From IMG/VR virus record IMGVR_UViG_3300021400_000072: DNA of 64,000 nt. One strand, written 5' to 3'. The position numbers and the translations under genes were made by a program. This document shows, in pieces, positions 18,091 through 32,900 of this stretch (positions are counted from its first letter, which is position 1; each line of letters begins with the position of its first letter). The stretch is from a virus. The notes beneath the pieces were generated by a model, which saw nothing but the letters and a program-made list of their open reading frames with translations, was not told the DNA's origin and made no database searches.

Positions 18091-18345
18091 TATTATCTCA
18101 TATTTTTTTAATAAAGTCAAGTGCGGTCTCGGCGGCAAGGCCATATGCCTCGGTCTGAACCTAAGGGCCATATAATGCGGGAAGCAGGTGATACTGCACA
18201 TGAGTCCATCTCCGCCTGACGGATTCACATAGGTGAATTCAGTTATGTGGATAGGTTCACCTTTGTGGATTGTGCATTTTGCACAAAAATTTCGGGATTT
18301 TTAAGATGATTTTTGTGCAACTTTTTTTGAAAAAAATATTGACAT

Positions 18346-18405
18346 TGGGTAGGTTTTGTGGTATAATCGGCGCGGGTCAGAGACCGCGCGCCGCTGATTG
18401 TTAAA
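18346..18405 (+). promoter_or_regulatory. plus-strand consensus promoter TTGACA-N17-TATAAT followed by GC hairpin (first intergenic module)
   Basis: TTGACAttgggtaggttttgtggTATAAT then GCGCGG-gtcagaga-CCGCGC. Confidence 0.5.
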
Positions 18406-18429
18406 ATTTTAACAGTATGTAGATATAAA

Positions 18430-18465
18430 AAAAAACAGGCGTTACCGCCTGTTTAAATCTATTAA
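18430..18465. terminator. bidirectional terminator at the left end of the early minus-strand block
   Basis: A9 ACAGGCG-ttac-CGCCTGT TTTAAAT. Confidence 0.6.
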
Positions 18466-18614
18466 AGAAAAATCAAAACCCATAATGAAAGCAAGAATTG
18501 CATCTGCTATAAGAATGAGAGGCCAAAGGGGTGTAGGTTCACGAAAGTAGAATGTAGAGACCGTACATAAAACAAAAAACCATACAACGCATCTAATCAT
18601 GGAAAGAAACATTT

Positions 18615-18803
18615 TTAAATCTCCTTTAAAATGTGAATATAGCCGAATCGGAAAAGGACTTTATAAAAGTCCCATCCGATTCTAATTTTATCTTTTTCTT
18701 TTGTTGGTAGTTTAATTATTTTCATCATTTTTAAATATCCATTCATTATAAATATTATCGGAAGAAGCAAGTATGTCGCAATATTTGGAAAAAGGACAGT
18801 CAC
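18615..18803 (-). CDS. small hypothetical protein (62 aa)
   Basis: ORF. Confidence 0.35.
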   Translation of the reverse strand: MTVLFPNIATYLLLPIIFIMNGYLKMMKIIKLPTKEKDKIRIGWDFYKVLFRFGYIHILKEI

Positions 18804-18872
18804 AGCAAAAATCTGTTTCTTGACATGCTTCTTTTATAATTTCCATACCTTTTTTCATTTTATCAATCCAAT

Positions 18873-19091
18873 TCATCTGCTTTTCTCCCTTGCAATATCA
18901 CTAAACTTGTACCAGATACCGCCGTCATCTTCCCAATACTTCTGCAATTCATCATAAGGAATAAACTTCTGTGCAAACATGATAACACCAAAAGCCTGTG
19001 CACGACAGTTCATAACCATATCAGCAGAAGAACATCCTTTTGCCTGAATAAGCATCTTTTCTACAAATTCTCTAACATCATTCATTGTCAT
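18873..19091 (-). CDS. small hypothetical protein (72 aa)
   Basis: ORF. Confidence 0.45.
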   Translation of the reverse strand: MTMNDVREFVEKMLIQAKGCSSADMVMNCRAQAFGVIMFAQKFIPYDELQKYWEDDGGIWYKFSDIAREKSR

Positions 19092-19093
19092 AA

Positions 19094-19309
19094 TTATAAC
19101 CCCCTGTTGATTGTGAGTCTGGCGAACAGTTTACAAATGTAAACCCATTCCTTATCATCAAGGGCAAAAAATTCAAAATCATCTTCATAAGGAGAATCAG
19201 GAATACCTGTAAGAATCCATGCTCCATAGATAGATTCATCTCCCAGATTGATTATATAATTATGCATACCTTTAAGAAGTTCTACTCTTGTTTTTTGAAG
19301 TTCTGTCAT
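19094..19309 (-). CDS. small hypothetical protein (71 aa)
   Basis: ORF, translationally coupled to 18873..19091. Confidence 0.45.
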   Translation of the reverse strand: MTELQKTRVELLKGMHNYIINLGDESIYGAWILTGIPDSPYEDDFEFFALDDKEWVYICKLFARLTINRGL

Positions 19310-29645: not shown

Positions 29646-29737
29646 TTTGAACCTCTTTTCTCGATCGGTGCTTTCCTTTAACTGTATTTATTATATCAAA
29701 GGGCTCGACTTTTGTCAAGCCCTTTTTTTGAAATTTT

Positions 29738-30037
29738 TTAAATTTTATTATATCCTGCTCTCATGTGCTCAATAGCAAGATTGATAATGTTCTGCGGGGC
29801 TTCGCCCTCTGCGTAGTACCGTCTAATCTGATTCGGTCTTGCAATAAGGATTGTAATCATGATGCCTGTCCGCTTGTTATAGATTACTACCAATCCGGTT
29901 GTGGTAATCTTATGGATTTCAGGCCCGTTCTTATGACCACGGTCTACAGTGACTTCCTTTATAACCTGCCCCATTCCGATCTGGGCGATAATCTGGCTAC
30001 GTCTCTGGCGGTCGGCTCTCCAATGCTTGCTGTTCAT
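29738..30037 (-). CDS. hypothetical protein (99 aa)
   Basis: ORF. Confidence 0.45.
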   Translation of the reverse strand: MNSKHWRADRQRRSQIIAQIGMGQVIKEVTVDRGHKNGPEIHKITTTGLVVIYNKRTGIMITILIARPNQIRRYYAEGEAPQNIINLAIEHMRAGYNKI

Positions 30038-30439
30038 GTCGTATCTCCTTTCCTTTATCTTATGTATACATTATACACCATGAGAGCGGCCATGTCAAGT
30101 AAAATATTGCACAAAATTATAGGAATTTTGTGCCCAATCTTTGTGCACATTTCCGATATTGATTTTTCTCGGTGGCTATGGTATAATGATTCTCGGCACG
30201 CGGCTGGCAAGGAACGGCCAGCCGCGTGCCGCGCAAAAAGGACGAGGATTAATCCTCGTCCTCGCCATTGAACTCCTCAGGAGTGACACCGCATTCCGCA
30301 AGCAGTTCGTTAAGAGTTGCACCACAGTTCATCATTTCGTTAATAGCCATTTTGTACCACCTTTCTTTTGTATGTTTGTTTTCCTTTGATGATTATATTA
30401 TATCTTAAAGGGGCTGTTTTGTCAACCCCTTTTTTAAGA

Positions 30440-30637
30440 TTAGGAAAGAAATTTTTCCCAAATCTCCCAGTTGTCAGACTGAAAATCCATATAATCTTCG
30501 AAATCCATATCTCCTTCACGATAGGCTTTCCAAACTCTAACAAGAGTTTTATCAGACTCAATTGCCTGATTGTAAAGGCGTGCGGTTTTCTCGGTGAGGG
30601 TGACAGTTACGAAAGAGTTAATAGCGATAGTAGTCAT
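30440..30637 (-). CDS. small hypothetical protein (65 aa)
   Basis: ORF. Confidence 0.4.
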   Translation of the reverse strand: MTTIAINSFVTVTLTEKTARLYNQAIESDKTLVRVWKAYREGDMDFEDYMDFQSDNWEIWEKFLS

Positions 30638-30732
30638 TTTTAATCTCCTTTTTGATCGGTGCTTTTGTTTTCCTTTGATGATTATATTATATCAGGGGGT
30701 TGAGGTTTTGTCAACCCCCTTTTTTTATTTTT

Positions 30733-30954
30733 TTAAAAGATTTTAATCTTTTCATCGGTGAAAAATCTTTCGTTCAGGAAGCATCCGCCTTTTGCATAGA
30801 ATTCATAGCGTGTCTCCCCATTTTTAATAACTGCTCTATAGATTCCGCAGTGTGCTTCTGTCGCAAGTGCTTTTGCTTCTTTCCATTCCTGACCAAAAGC
30901 CTCAGTTGTGTAAAGTTCAGTTCCGTTTACCATGTAGATGAATTCTGTAGTCAT
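30733..30954 (-). CDS. small hypothetical protein (73 aa)
   Basis: ORF. Confidence 0.4.
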   Translation of the reverse strand: MTTEFIYMVNGTELYTTEAFGQEWKEAKALATEAHCGIYRAVIKNGETRYEFYAKGGCFLNERFFTDEKIKIF

Positions 30955-31198
30955 TTTATTTATCTCCTTTTGTGTTGTTTGTTTTCCTTTGATGATATTA
31001 TTATAACATACTATAGATTAAAGTCAATAGATTTTTAAAAAAAATATATACAAAAACGGGATCAGTATAGCTTTAATATTTGTGCATTTTTACATCTTGA
31101 CAACTGGCTGACGCATGTGATATAATTTTTCGGCCCGCAGGGGCCGCCTGCGGAAACTTAAATAAAAAGCCTTGCTGTTTTTAGCAAGGCTTTTTTTA

Positions 31199-31585
31199 TT
31201 AATTTTCTTCAATGAATTTTTTCTTCCATGCAATGGCTTTCTGGAGTTTTTCAATTTCCTTTTCAAATTCAGCGATTTCTTTTGCATATCTTTTCTTTTT
31301 TGCCTGAAGTTTTTTATATGCTCTGTATTCCTCTACAGTCATACCGTTTTCATCGGCTCTTCTTTTTTCATTTTCAATTCTTCTCTGTTTAGTTCTTTCT
31401 TCCTTTTCCTTTTCCGCTTTCTTTTCAGCAAGGGTTTCATCACAAAATGCTTTAAACTCTGCATCGGTCTGAGGAGCACCGCCAGCACCTACAAAAGCCC
31501 TAATCTGAATGGAAAAAGCAATGATTTTCTGTTCTTCTTCAGTGTAGTTAGCAAGGATTTCGTTTACATGGATTTCGTTTGTCAT
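31199..31585 (-). CDS. coiled-coil K/E-rich protein (128 aa)
   Basis: ORF; bidirectional terminator at 31165-31200. Confidence 0.5.
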   Translation of the reverse strand: MTNEIHVNEILANYTEEEQKIIAFSIQIRAFVGAGGAPQTDAEFKAFCDETLAEKKAEKEKEERTKQRRIENEKRRADENGMTVEEYRAYKKLQAKKKRYAKEIAEFEKEIEKLQKAIAWKKKFIEEN

Positions 31586-31769
31586 TTTAGACCCCTTTCT
31601 TGATCGGTTGTTTGTTTTCCTTTGATGATTATATTATAGCATACTCTGAAATAAAGTCAATAGTTTTTTCAAAAAAAATAAAAAATTTTTTTTGAAAAAA
31701 ATTTCATTTTTCCTCTTGACAACTGGCTATCACGTGTGGTATAATATTTCGGCTTGCAGCGACTGTAAA

Positions 31770-32900
31770 CGCAAACCAACAATTGACAGATTGTTAAAAC
31801 TTTAACAATCTGTCAACTATAACAATAGATTGTAAAAAATAAAGGTCTTGTTAGTTCTGACTCTAACAAGACCTTTATTTTTATCTAACGTCAATGCCCT
31901 GACTTTTCAGATATTCAATTCGAACAGGAACAGCTTCGTTATAAGTTCTTTCGATGTATTCTTTTAAGTTTCTCATAACATAACTTCTATCGCTTTCCTT
32001 ATAAATTCCAAGTTCAATCATTCTGTCAACCATAGCCTTTTTTGTCATTTTTAACTCCTTTCTCGATCGGTTCTTTGTTTCATTTGATAAATCAATTATA
32101 ACGCCAAAAGTTACATCTGTCAACACTTATTTTAATTTTCAGACTATTTTTTTAATTTTCAGATAACTTTAAAAACCTTTATTTCTAAATATTTTACTTT
32201 GATCCTTTAACGTGTTAAAGTGTGTTATTTCTTTAACAAGCAATAGCATTTTAGGAATGAAAAGATTCTTTAAAATTTTTTCATTTTCCCTCTTGACAAG
32301 TTGACCTCCTGTGTGGTATAATTGTTCGGCCTGCGGCGGCCGCACTGGCTGGTTTTGAATAACAGAGTTTGTTTGTTAAATAACAAACAAACTCTGTTAC
32401 TTTGATGTACTAAAGAACATTGTTAAATTATTAACAATGTTTGTACTATGTTAGATTGTTAATAGTTTAACAATGTTTGTTCTTTATTATTATTATTATT
32501 ATTATTATTATTATTAATTATATTGTTAAACTATTAACAATCAAATGACTTATTTTGATAGTTTCACTCGTTTGGTTGGTCTTGTCTAACTGGCTTGACC
32601 TACCCTTTACCGGTTTAGCGCATTAAAGTCTGTTAAAATTTTAACAAAGAAAATACTAAAATTTATCTTGTTAAAAAATGTTAAATTTTTAACAAGAGAT
32701 GAACAAAACTGTAAGATTGATGTGTTAAAAATTTAACAAAGAAAATACTGTGTTTATATGTGTTAAAATTTTAACAAACTGAAATAGATAGAATTATAAA
32801 TTCCATGTGTTAAAATTTTAACACACGAGATGAATAAAACTATAATTTTACTGTGTTAAAATTTTAACGAATAATAGGCAAAACTTATAGTTCTGTCTAT
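31770..32900. repeat. cluster of TGTTAA-N-TTAACA palindromes/iterons with (TTA)11 microsatellite; candidate origin or regulatory hub
   Basis: GTTAAAATTTTAAC repeated 6 times at 32630-32870 with 35-45 bp spacing; perfect palindromes AACAGAGTTTGTTTGTTAAATAACAAACAAACTCTGTT (32372-32409) and TTGACAGATTGTTAAAACTTTAACAATCTGTCAA (31782-31815); (TTA)11 at 32481-32515; ORF-free about 1.1 kb. Confidence 0.55.
31881..32126 (-). CDS. small hypothetical protein (81 aa)
   Basis: ORF; terminator 31843-31885 (GGTCTTGTTAG..CTAACAAGACC + T-run). Confidence 0.45.
   Translation of the reverse strand: MLTDVTFGVIIDLSNETKNRSRKELKMTKKAMVDRMIELGIYKESDRSYVMRNLKEYIERTYNEAVPVRIEYLKSQGIDVR

Follow-up and report, generated by a model that had tools for sequence, protein, structure and literature searches.

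In Escherichia coli, programmed head-on collisions terminate convergent transcription units, and fixing the collision site requires an RNA stem-loop that lacks a canonical U-tract (bioRxiv 10.1101/2022.10.23.513370). Here, we describe a boundary cassette of a large phage (gut or rumen) in which TAG is read as a sense codon; it lies where one leftward early operon ends and the next one begins. In gene direction it comprises an intrinsic terminator (called T1, a hairpin with a U-tract), a GC-rich palindrome of 24-38 nt located 1-11 nt after T1, a promoter, taken as the strongest of the cassette, pointing back at the operon just ended (called P(+)), two helically phased TTGCACAA sites and the promoter of the next operon (called P(-)), usually with a weaker -35 element. 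The window, i.e. the whole stretch of 64 kb analyzed, contains the copies described below, and 218 units of this kind were found in related large phages, spread over 78 loci. At least 14 five-part modules had been proposed in a first-pass annotation; all five kinds of feature lie where it placed them, far above chance, but not every copy holds all five. From the sequence we tentatively propose that the cassette is a boundary transcription insulator, in which predicted promoter activity and collision would give rise to the insulating effect.

The pattern TTGACA-N14/15-TGnTATAAT (spacer N17/18) occurs 18 times in the window as compared to 0.01 expected from shuffles, and 18 out of 18 perfect matches are confined to 18339-32322. 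Nine are on the plus strand (18339-18367, written as TTGACA-N17-TGgTATAAT; 22602-22631, with an 18-nt spacer; 24630-24658; 25772-25800; 27792-27821; 28643-28672; 31097-31126; 31716-31745 at a block boundary; and 32293-32322, where the early block ends on the right), together with two near-perfect instances of the same pattern at 26929-26957 (TTGACT) and 30159-30187 (TTGATT-N17-TGgTATAAT). These 11 P(+) promoters of the window share one direction, opposite to the early genes. The P(+) of the cassette is of the full-consensus Gram-positive sigma-A type, with the -35 element TTGACA, a TRTG -16 element, the -10 element TATAAT and a GGA discriminator. An RBS-bearing ORF directly after P(+) was found at none of them, in line with the earlier claim of rightward promoters without a gene to serve; the few ORFs further downstream are either preceded by an intervening promoter of their own or are spurious antisense frames. 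The further claim of a perfect-consensus plus-strand promoter in each copy stood for nine copies and nearly so for two; four copies lack the -10 element, so that there are 11 full antisense promoters and not at least 14. When the upstream motif was searched independently of the promoter, 27 of its 38 matches were followed about 49 nt downstream by a promoter matching at 12 out of 12 positions, and the remaining ones mostly resemble chance matches inside coding sequence.

The four copies with a TTGACA-type -35 element but no -10 are located at 19425-19461 (TTGACA at 19425-19430, GC hairpin at 19438-19461), 20522-20561 (TTGACT, hairpin at 20535-20561), 21654-21692 (TTGACA, hairpin at 21666-21692, a second terminator on the minus strand) and 23228-23266 (TTGACA, hairpin core at 23241-23261, T6 run on the minus strand). 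Their GC hairpin begins 12-13 nt from the start and 6-7 nt from the end of the -35 element, and a hairpin with a T-run stands in place of P(+). Read on the minus strand, the 19425 copy is a hairpin followed by GAATTTTTGTCAA, a terminator. In these copies TTGACAAAAA is the complement of the post-hairpin T-run TTTTTGTCAA, as would be expected if P(+) were incidental, i.e. if the GC hairpin were a second minus-strand terminator and TTGACA/TATAAT arose by chance or as the complement of a T-tract. We consider this reading hardly credible and already contradicted by conservation: the -35, TRTG -16, -10 and GGA discriminator elements are kept across >200 units despite diverging hairpin sequences, the number of perfect extended promoters far exceeds the chance expectation, and the minus-strand RNA of full units continues after the hairpin with AAAUUUCC, which is no U-tract. 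We regard P(+) as a genuine, conserved promoter serving no ORF, the activity of which is predicted.

The GC hairpin starts 7-8 nt past the P(+) -10, i.e. close to the transcript start (about +1 to +2), and thus shortly after the -10 as had been noted before. Eight plus-strand hairpins are strong: 18368-18393, directly after P(+) and with the palindrome TGTTAAAATTTTAACA behind it (18399-18414); 22641-22664 (-20.6 kcal/mol, z = -5.0); 24667-24691 (CGCCGCGGCC-CGAA-GGaCCGCGGCG); 25809-25833; 26966-26990; 27829-27853; 28679-28717 (14-15 bp, -34.9 kcal/mol, z = -5.9, with compensatory changes in orthologues); and 30194-30231 (15 bp, -35.5 kcal/mol, z = -6.4). A shorter plus-strand hairpin of 7 bp at 31135-31153 is moderate, so that eight or nine of the 11 P(+) promoters start on a strong GC hairpin; after the promoters at 31716 and 32293 it is weak (32324-32345 in the latter) or absent, and a GC-rich hairpin in each copy is thus only partly borne out. 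In a scan of the whole window, GC-rich stems with 8 bp or more and no mismatch were confined to 20.5-33 kb. The 31716 promoter reads into a palindrome at 31792-31807 and then a terminator at 31835-31882, and the 32293 promoter into a palindrome array at 32421-32869.

On the far side of the GC hairpin, an A-run lies about 40-46 nt past the P(+) -10, and the T1 release site is about 35 bp away, at about +33 to +39 when counted from the start of P(+) transcription. The A-run was found in 124 out of 218 units and was then followed by a T1-like hairpin in 113 of the 124. In the window, T1 terminators on the minus strand are located at 18433-18454 (operon ending at 18442), 21697-21724 (gene 21730-22128), 24707-24728 (after the tRNA-Lys at 24764-24837), 25843-25866 (gene 25853-26032), 27001-27022 (gene 27010-27192), 27863-27883, 28722-28748 (gene 28732-28935) and 30239-30262. 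The 22602 copy has a second hairpin on the minus strand, CCCGAC...GTCGGG at 22665-22691, which as read from the sequence pairs fully in the minus-strand RNA only, via G-U. At 31164-31195 the terminator is bidirectional and would limit the P(+) RNA to about 70 nt.

Changes on both sides were found in eight out of 12 stem pairs with 98.8% of cells paired, a result matched by 0 out of 500 shuffles, and across the 218 units the complementarity of a hairpin's own arms was 0.968 as compared to 0.421 +/- 0.013 for arms swapped between units. The stems thus covary as the first-pass annotation had predicted; selection on the plus-strand RNA specifically did not follow. The GC-hairpin mismatches, counted on the P(+) strand, show no strand bias (10 G:T versus 18 A:C), in contrast to the T1 control (17 A:C versus 3 G:T, p = 0.003). 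Since the T1 mismatches are biased 17:3 to its functional strand, T1 acts as gene-sense RNA, which substantiates the suggestion that the A-run and second hairpin are the minus-strand intrinsic terminator of the upstream operon; the GC palindrome, being unbiased, seems to be under constraint in both orientations, or else as DNA. Because template-switch mutation can keep a GC palindrome perfect in DNA, covariation argues less strongly for RNA function here than it normally would. The loops are the sole feature of the GC hairpin that points to the P(+) strand: they are purine-rich there (A 234 versus T 126), with the motifs GAAG (10 versus 0 on the opposite strand) and GGA (35 versus 8). This bias suggests that the P(+) RNA itself matters, beyond polymerase occupancy. 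GGA is present in about 30% of the loops and no motif is common to all of them; one family of hairpins retains the loop G(A/T)GAAGC on a varying stem.

These strand signals bear on three readings in which the P(+) transcript is the product. A possible, if somewhat doubtful, one is that P(+) yields cis-antisense RNAs that would be stable, their 5'-terminal GC hairpin blocking 5'-end-dependent decay (RppH/RNase J1). The body of such an RNA is complementary to T1, to its U-tract and to the final gene of the preceding operon, and by pairing it would tune or silence these early mRNAs, e.g. via RNase III. The hairpin begins at about +1 to +2, and the RppH of Bacillus subtilis needs at least two unpaired 5' nucleotides (PMC3997798). 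The loops are purine-rich on the P(+) strand like those of T1 on its functional, gene-sense strand, and about one quarter of the units have a plus-strand terminator within about 100 nt, which would yield defined small RNAs (e.g. 31097-31195). However, such a terminator lies within 800 nt in less than half of the units, the stem mismatches lack the G-U preference on the P(+) strand expected from the T1 control, the targets are mixed (the tRNA at 24764-24837, ORFans and once a 3' UTR alone), and variants in which a co-directional promoter runs straight into the hairpin and a U-run give RNAs of about 35 nt without an antisense target. One of these variants, a consensus promoter on the minus strand at 23269-23297, runs into the GC hairpin and T-run of the 23228 copy and forms a tiny promoter-plus-terminator unit. 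Such units, being just promoter, hairpin and U-run, would also suit a decoy, in which at least 10 strong promoters per genome would produce large amounts of short GC hairpins with a 5' triphosphate and often with GGA/GAAG loops, so as to occupy a host RNA-binding factor or defence sensor; the strand-biased loops and the family with a conserved loop on a variable stem agree with it. We consider it improbable, given that a universal loop motif is absent, that stems vary freely and that the tight coupling to operon ends and T1 is left unexplained. Still less probable is a nut-/put-like site, at which a phage factor on the nascent 5' hairpin would render P(+) transcription terminator-resistant and long rightward antisense RNAs would silence the early block later in infection. 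This idea fits with a strong promoter being followed at once by a GC stem that bears a purine-rich loop, and with the common direction of all P(+) in the window, but the hairpin sequences vary too much to be recognized by a specific RNA-binding protein, a boxA-like element was not seen, a separate promoter serves the plus-strand block at 37.6 kb, and the weakest hairpins are at the boundary promoters closest to that block.

On the other side of P(+), each copy was said to have a leftward promoter; such P(-) promoters were confirmed and carry a -35 hexamer with 4-6 out of 6 matches and a consensus -10. They were located on the minus strand at 24533-24561 (TTGCAT-N17-TATAAT, serving gene 23794-24489), 25683-25711 (TTGTGT-N17-TATAAT), 26841-26869 (TTGAAA-N17-TATAAT), 27704-27732 (TTGCAT-N17-TATAAT), 28557-28585 (TTGCGT-N17-TATAAT), 30070-30098 (consensus) and 31000-31027 (TTGACT-N16-TATAAT). 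Both inverted-repeat halves, TGCACAAA...TTTGTGCA, were found in eight out of 15 copies, with a start-to-start spacing of 32 bp in seven and 22 bp in one: TGCACAAA at 18280 and TTTGTGCA at 18312 (span 18280-18319), 24581 and 24613 (24581-24620, 32 bp apart), 25723 and 25755 (25723-25762), 26880 and 26912 (26880-26919, with an exact ATCCCGAAATTTGTGCA on the minus strand), 27743 and 27775 (27743-27782), 28595 and 28617 (28595-28624, the 22-bp case), 30108 and 30140 (30108-30147), and 31047 (TATACAAA) and 31079 (31047-31086); the 31716 copy lacks the repeat. The 17-mer ATCCCGAAATTTGTGCA with up to three mismatches gave seven matches versus 0.27 expected.

The half-sites (22 or 32 bp apart), the right half-site relative to the -35 (17 or 27 bp before it) and the two -35 elements (spaced near 48, 59 or 69) follow a 10-bp phasing that fits a protein bound on one DNA face. 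The idea of a regulator site is to this extent supported, although instead of a single operator the repeat may rather be the TTTGTGCA element repeated 9-11 bp upstream of each back-to-back -35. The first-pass annotation had envisaged a regulator that could switch promoter direction. In this reading, a protein at the TTGCACAA sites would govern the P(+)/P(-) pair and redirect polymerase to P(-) in the course of infection; in a helper form, P(+) firing would aid the weaker P(-) by recruiting polymerase or by local negative supercoiling. Precedents are the lambda PR/PRM pair and the p4 protein of phage phi29 (between promoters A2b/A2c and A3), and the P(-) promoters of the window modules, with only 4 out of 6 -35 matches and no extended -10, agree with this reading. 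We nevertheless find this unlikely, as the search for a matching phage HTH protein failed (no DNA-binding domain was detected among 30 early ORFs), short transcripts produce little supercoiling, P(-) is itself often consensus in relatives, and neither the hairpin nor the constant arrangement of P(+) facing a terminator is explained.

The boundary insulator that we tentatively favor builds on the observed anatomy, conservation and covariation, the acting strand of T1 and the absence of a served ORF. P(+) would hold host RNA polymerase head-on beside T1, either in an open or initial transcription complex or, once the 5' hairpin has formed, in a paused one. Judging from standard footprint sizes, a polymerase that has elongated as far as the T1 release site would abut the P(+)-bound one, so that a polymerase failing to terminate at T1 would be stopped by collision and the next P(-), which appears controlled via the phased sites, would be shielded from read-through. 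Because the element is a palindrome, the hairpin forms in either transcript; it could trap polymerases from both sides and cap the short P(+) RNA at its 5' end, and abundant short 5'-hairpin RNAs antisense to the operon 3' end would be a by-product. This proposal is favored because P(+) is conserved, perfect, without a served ORF and sited at operon ends, because the distances of hairpin and A-run from the P(+) -10 are fixed, because unbiased GC stems match the expectation for a palindrome used both ways, and because the divergent gene-serving promoter sits at helically phased distances. Orientation-independent variants also favor it, namely the -10-less copies, the co-directional units and convergent pairs, i.e. 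two convergent promoters on one hairpin (n = 9) that are too close for simultaneous occupancy. Against it speak the purine-rich loops on the P(+) strand, the many operon junctions of the early block that manage without P(+), and the co-directional promoter of convergent pairs, which, without a terminator, would read into the next operon.

No Rfam family was found, and no match in the literature. Head-on collision termination with a stem-loop in E. coli is a precedent for the proposed P(+)/T1 insulator. The closest analogue of the boundary cassette is the T4-type PeSL cassette, and among phage promoter-terminator cassettes the present arrangement appears to be a variant not described before.

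The extended-consensus promoter TTGACA-N14/15-TGnTATAAT has 18 matches in the window where 0.01 are expected, and 18 out of 18 lie within 18.3-32.3 kb, a block of about 45 small minus-strand genes with strong Shine-Dalgarno sites and the standard genetic code. The plus strand, which carries none of the block's genes, has eleven such promoters, nine perfect and two near-perfect (26929 with TTGACT, 30159 with TTGATT). These plus-strand promoters, called P(+), combine a -35 box, a 17-18-nt spacer, TRTG (the Gram-positive '-16 region'), a -10 box and a GGA discriminator, i.e. every element predicted to maximise polymerase binding. 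No ORF with a ribosome-binding site is directly served by a promoter of this hairpin type; the ORFs found downstream either have an intervening promoter or are spurious antisense frames. Within a few nt of each of the 11 promoters lies a G+C-rich hairpin-forming sequence. The hairpins at 22641, 28679 and 30194 were very stable (z from -5 to -6.4), those at 24667 and 25809 stable, those at 26966, 27829 and 31135 weaker and those after 31716 and 32293 poor, per-sequence folding z-scores being weak for short hairpins and GC-rich shuffles folding too; arm swaps and pair counts were used instead.

With 33% GC the window is AT-rich, and it has the look of a section of a large phage genome. Outside the early block, 25 ORFs of at least 200 aa are found with TAG read through vs 10 under the standard code; long ORFs depend on TAG as a sense codon at 7.3-12.6 kb (-), 16.8-17.5 kb (+) and 37.6-54.7 kb (+), the last forming a tidy plus-strand ORF block, and the early block at 18-32 kb can be read in the standard code. 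The window yielded no suppressor tRNA. Positions 1-6600 (-) carry an array of 14-17 tRNA genes (17 Rfam matches, 13 ARAGORN calls, among them an odd 4-base anticodon 'tttg' at 6324-6395), and beside it lies a full-length ROOL RNA at 1338-1930 (-) with 280.6 bits vs a gathering score of 99.1. A terminase-like frame at 40379-43126 (+) seems by eye to be split into 40379-41335 and 42257-43126, with an ORF carrying an HNH-type motif at 41379-42251 between the halves. Pfam gave no match above its curated cut-off for 30 ORFs of the early block (18-33 kb); the two matches that passed it, SPFH and DUF5758, are at 33-35 kb, just outside the block. The region at 18.3-32.3 kb has the appearance of an early or host-takeover block, read by the host sigma-A polymerase. 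It contains a lone tRNA-Lys(ttt) at 24764-24837 (-), which faces the P(+) at 24630, and two paralogous genes that have no Pfam match, 21730-22128 (-) of 132 aa and 24880-25284 (-) of 134 aa; both are operon-terminal and sit just before a cassette, and a further copy is present in L044, an IMG/VR locus of a related phage.

A megablast of 18-33 kb against INPHARED returned a sole match of 46 bp, hence no annotated relative. Scans of IMG/VR with exact patterns yielded 121 loci, many on contigs of 100-240 kb, including L044 as a syntenic relative (88% identity over 10 kb). Compared with L044, the window shows gene-sized deletions or replacements at 19093-19304, 19465-20243 and 26567-26798, bounded by conserved cassettes, and L044 has an extra cassette at 7816. 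The scan of contigs in genomes gave matches in MAGs of many phyla; these look like mis-binned phage contigs, and therefore no host was assigned from them. The promoter features suggest a Gram-positive host. Window and loci together (1.16 Mb) contain 1021 distinct extended-consensus promoters, whose downstream hairpin score, from a strand-symmetric finder, was bimodal. A strong GC hairpin follows 233 of the 1021, a prevalence biased towards cassette presence because relatives were fetched with cassette-derived patterns; a motif-anchored check and the many units unused for fetching lessen this bias and do not remove it. In 218 of the 233 the hairpin starts 2-10 nt after the -10 box, and the distribution peaks sharply at 7-8 nt. 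The 218 units, drawn from 78 loci of related phages, are not independent. Their stems span 7-16 bp (mean 9.9 Watson-Crick pairs, 84% G:C) and their loops 3-14 nt. The first G:C pair is located 7-8 nt past the -10 box in most units, at the predicted transcription start; comparing 18-nt spacers for a shorter distance between -10 box and hairpin (compensation test) revealed a shift of only 0.5 nt.

The first-pass annotation had read the early block as at least 14 copies of a module in which divergent promoters surround an inverted repeat, with a GC-rich hairpin, an A-run and a second hairpin. This was right in kind, and the complete copies came down to 11 full units; four further copies have TTGACA and no -10 box (19425, 20522, 21654 and 23228, hairpin beginning 12-13 nt after the start of TTGACA), and at 23297 (-) there is in addition one co-directional promoter, directed straight at the hairpin and a T6 run. 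On the minus strand of two or three of the -10-less copies, hairpin and TTTTTGTCAA make a plain terminator. The -10-less copies stay so in L044 and in the related locus L024, with compensatory stem changes. The A-run and second hairpin are indeed the minus-strand intrinsic terminator of the upstream operon (T1). Read in gene direction, the cassette consists of the operon end, T1 (hairpin and U4-10), 1-11 nt, the GC palindrome (median 27 nt), AAATTTCC, the reversed P(+), two TTGCACAA-type sites, the divergent promoter P(-) and the next operon. The consensus of 124 units is TTGCACAAATTTtGGGAt ... TTTGTgca-N9-TTGACAAAA-(G/T-rich spacer)-TGTGGTATAAT-GGAAATTT-hairpin, and downstream of the hairpin, full units read C-N-N-G-C-A6 in the plus strand and AAAUUUCC in the minus strand. 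By sequence, P(+) faces an operon end in 124 of the 218 units, with a recognisable T1 in 113 of the 124; nine pairs (18 of 218 units) have two convergent consensus promoters around one common hairpin, and about 11-25 of the 218 are co-directional promoters running into a hairpin and U-run.

The spacing of these elements is regular. The inverted repeat TGCACAAA...TTTGTGCA, proposed in the first-pass annotation for every module, has both halves in eight window copies (32 bp apart in seven, 22 bp in one). Across units the two half-sites are separated by 22 or 32 bp, the right half precedes the -35 box by 17 or 27 bp, and the -35 box of the divergent promoter is found at distances clustering near 48, 59 and 69 bp; such steps of one helical turn are what contacts along a single DNA face would leave. 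The divergent gene-serving promoter reaches a score of at least 10/12 in 82 of 123 units. Helper or switch activity of the divergent promoter pair has this phasing in its favour and is nevertheless unlikely: the phage HTH protein expected to bind the repeat was sought with Pfam among 30 early ORFs (18-33 kb), where no HTH, DNA-binding or RNA-binding protein exceeded the curated cut-off.

Other elements accompany the cassettes. The 16-bp palindrome TGTTAAAATTTTAACA has 11 window copies at two mismatches or fewer (18399-18414, 31792-31807 and nine at 32421-32869); the nine clustered copies adjoin an (ATT)n run at about 32478-32512, and the P(+) promoters at the block boundaries (18339, 31716 and 32293) read straight into TGTTAAAATTTTAACA palindromes. 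The cluster may be an origin of replication, a partition site or an array of operators. To its right, at 32949-32978, a perfect GC hairpin CTCGGCGCGC...GCGCGCCGAG is followed by CAAAAA and has no recognisable promoter in front. The minus-strand consensus promoters at 25457-25485, 27586-27614 and 22367-22395 are followed by 70-200 nt free of ORFs before the next promoter, and the early block may encode several short gene-strand non-coding transcripts. At 30694-30720, 29382-29399, 29690-29720 and 30397-30430, the -35 TTGACA of minus-strand consensus promoters is part of a hairpin with an A-run on one side and a T-run on the other, a fusion of terminator and promoter whose better U-tract is on the plus strand. 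The consensus promoter 27442 (-) has a long leader downstream, at 27235-27453 and upstream of a 60-aa ORF (27010-27192). This leader shares 94% identity with positions 4351-4565 of the related locus L042, against 77-83% in the adjoining DNA; it has no Rfam match and is possibly a structured RNA.

Pairing within the GC hairpin is conserved while its sequence is not. Among the 218 units, own-arm complementarity was 0.968 vs 0.421 +/- 0.013 when arms were swapped between units, in agreement with the covariation claimed for the stems by the first-pass annotation. One hairpin family was aligned (seven members out of nine hairpins, two rows out of register in MAFFT being left out) and exhibits changes on both sides in 8 of 12 pairs; 98.8% of cells pair, a level reached by 0 of 500 shuffles, and sliding the partners by 1-3 columns reduced pairing to 26-49%. 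Between the window and L044, orthologous hairpins have changed by clean compensatory exchanges, and hairpin 26966 vs L044 8568 is an outright replacement inside flanks that are 88% identical. Covariation alone is no proof of RNA function because template switching can homogenise perfect DNA palindromes. Rfam returned only the tRNA at threshold in 18000-33500 and nothing overlapping the units even at E <= 1. A nut-like antitermination site is very unlikely: lambda nut sites have a boxB hairpin of conserved sequence for N together with boxA, and HK022 put sites fold into two stems, whereas the 218 units have 147 distinct outer-arm sequences, mixed loops and no conserved flanking box besides GGAAATTT and the A-run.

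The strand on which the hairpins act was addressed through their mismatches. One transition turns a Watson-Crick pair into G:T or A:C, and an RNA hairpin tolerates G:T only on its own strand. Counted on the P(+) strand, T1 mismatches were A:C in 17 and G:T in 3 cases (p = 0.003), so that selection on T1 acts on the gene-sense RNA and the wobble test is shown to work. The GC hairpins gave G:T 10 and A:C 18 on the same strand (p = 0.18), which would argue against selection on the P(+) RNA alone; the count is what bidirectional use or upkeep of the palindrome at the DNA level would give, two options which the test cannot separate. Loops add a second measure. T1 loops favour purines on the gene-sense strand, most often as GAAA, and the loops of the GC hairpins do so on the P(+) strand (A 234 vs T 126, p = 1e-8; GGA 35 vs 8 and GAAG 10 vs 0, P(+) vs other strand), so the P(+) transcript seems to count. 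This loop bias speaks for the main rival explanation, stable cis-antisense RNAs guarded by a 5'-terminal stem-loop, and the strand-neutral mismatches speak against it; it is possible, and we consider it somewhat doubtful. A bolder variant of the insulator reading given below, in which the released 5'-triphosphate hairpin RNAs are themselves effectors and decoys for a host factor, also draws on the loop bias and is improbable. The tetraloop classes GNRA and UNCG are enriched on neither strand of the GC hairpins.

The orphan promoter itself is under selection. When units were anchored on the upstream motif and not on the promoter, a 12/12 promoter was found about 49 nt downstream in 27 of 38 motif matches; the rest look mostly like chance matches in coding sequence. 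That P(+) is incidental is highly improbable. The P(+) spacers (e.g. 26935-26951) are G/T-rich and share ...CTGGCGGTGTGATATAAT, which could be a further protein site; the spacers of gene-serving promoters are A/T-rich.

We tentatively favour the cassette as a boundary insulator, a reading short of being probable, because P(+) has the elements that maximise binding and is then followed by DNA that is hard to melt from about +1. An open complex covers about -55 to +20, and an elongating polymerase covers about 15-18 bp ahead of its active site. The A-run that templates the U-tract of T1 lies 40-46 nt after the -10 box of P(+), at about +33 to +39 from the predicted start, so that polymerases at P(+) and at the T1 release site would come just into contact. 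A permanently loaded, head-on polymerase at P(+) would then back up T1, the palindrome would act as a hairpin trap in either direction, and short 5'-capped RNAs would be released from P(+). The insulator model accounts for the orientation-independent variants and the strand-neutral stems; the loop purine bias is not needed by it. With a little more reserve we extend this to the general proposal that a family of large TAG-recoding gut and rumen phages may carry a class of gene-less promoters whose sole job is head-on loading of polymerase at the ends of early operons, the whole cassette being a collision-based insulator and a new kind of cis element.

Several known element types were rejected. 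An N4-type hairpin promoter for a virion RNA polymerase, which has a 5-7-bp stem, a 3-nt loop and conserved bases and is free of sigma-type boxes, disagrees with stems of 7-16 bp, loops of 3-14 nt, variable sequence and full sigma-A boxes adjoining. Unconserved hairpin sequences and the presence of sigma-A boxes also dismiss a CRISPR repeat or RNA anti-CRISPR and a MITE, for which terminal inverted repeats or target-site duplications were not noticed. The GC hairpin is not an intrinsic terminator, since full units have no U-tract and one occurs only in some -10-less and co-directional copies.

If the insulator reading is true, phages have arrived at small, portable insulators in which the host polymerase is the roadblock; this would be natural evidence for programmed polymerase collisions as a design principle beyond E. 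coli gene pairs and a ready-made synthetic-biology part for Gram-positive hosts. The coexistence of dozens of very strong early promoters within 14 kb, free of mutual read-through, would then be easier to explain. If the 5'-capped antisense RNAs were true instead, phage early programmes would gain about ten more non-coding RNAs per genome. The element marks a large uncultured clade of TAG-recoding phages (at least 78 loci) and provides a simple sequence signature of their early regions.

Literature searches on antisense promoters in phage early regions and on promoters of recoded phages yielded nothing specific. The cassettes were compared with known systems. In the type I toxin-antitoxin pairs txpA/RatA and bsrG/SR4 of B. 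subtilis prophages, the RNA promoter is convergent beyond the 3' end of a small gene and the RNAs overlap at the terminator. The cassettes would likewise have a convergent small-RNA promoter just past a gene's 3' end; unlike these pairs, they are repeated, have no conserved toxin, and their upstream partners include a tRNA and soluble ORFans. Coliphage 186 (pR/pL, 'sitting duck' interference) and phi29 (p4 with A2b/A2c and A3) have opposing or divergent promoters a short distance apart, with protein sites between the promoters and interference via polymerase occupancy. These are single developmental switches per genome with genes on both sides, whereas here 11-15 copies occur per early block and one arm has no gene to serve. 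Between convergent E. coli genes, bidirectional terminators driven by collision were reportedly described by Ju et al. in 2019; the proposed insulator would work in the manner reported for them. They are reported to require an RNA stem-loop, which has no U-tract, to fix the collision point, form a hairpin in either transcript and gain efficiency with promoter strength (bioRxiv 10.1101/2022.10.23.513370, Wang et al.). The GC hairpins similarly lack a canonical U-tract and would fold in both transcripts (96.8% Watson-Crick, no wobble strand bias). The E. coli collision partners are genes in that host, whereas the partner here would be a gene-less promoter about 35 bp from a canonical terminator in a presumed Gram-positive host. 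5'-terminal stem-loops stabilise the ompA, papA, ermC and aprE leaders (reviewed in PMC3997798), and P(+) transcripts would also begin with a stable hairpin within 0-2 nt of the predicted 5' end; the known stabilisers guard an mRNA with a coding region, which P(+) transcripts lack.

Closest are the PeSL (promoter-early stem-loop) cassettes of T4-type phages, repeated units of early promoter and GC stem-loop that flank ORFans and mediate shuffling by recombination (via mini-circles); they have one promoter, in gene orientation, and the word 'antisense' is absent from the PeSL paper (PMC2839356, PMC4122927). Both kinds of cassette are repeated, intergenic, about 100-200 bp long and located in an early ORFan-rich region, and both combine a strong sigma-70-type promoter and AT-rich upstream DNA with a GC-rich stem-loop that ends upstream transcription. 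The gene-orientation promoter with AT-rich upstream DNA corresponds to P(-) and other minus-strand consensus promoters, and the adjacent stem-loop to T1 with its hairpin and gene-strand U-tract. Flanking genes are gained, lost or replaced between close relatives in both, and the differences between the window and L044 resemble PeSL-like modular shuffling. Unlike PeSL, the present cassettes have an opposite-strand consensus promoter with its own second hairpin (11 window copies, 218 units) and phased TTGCACAA sites, and they reside in a TAG-recoding phage with Gram-positive promoter features that nothing examined ties to the T4 group. They are not classed as members of the PeSL family, which comprises the nearest described elements.
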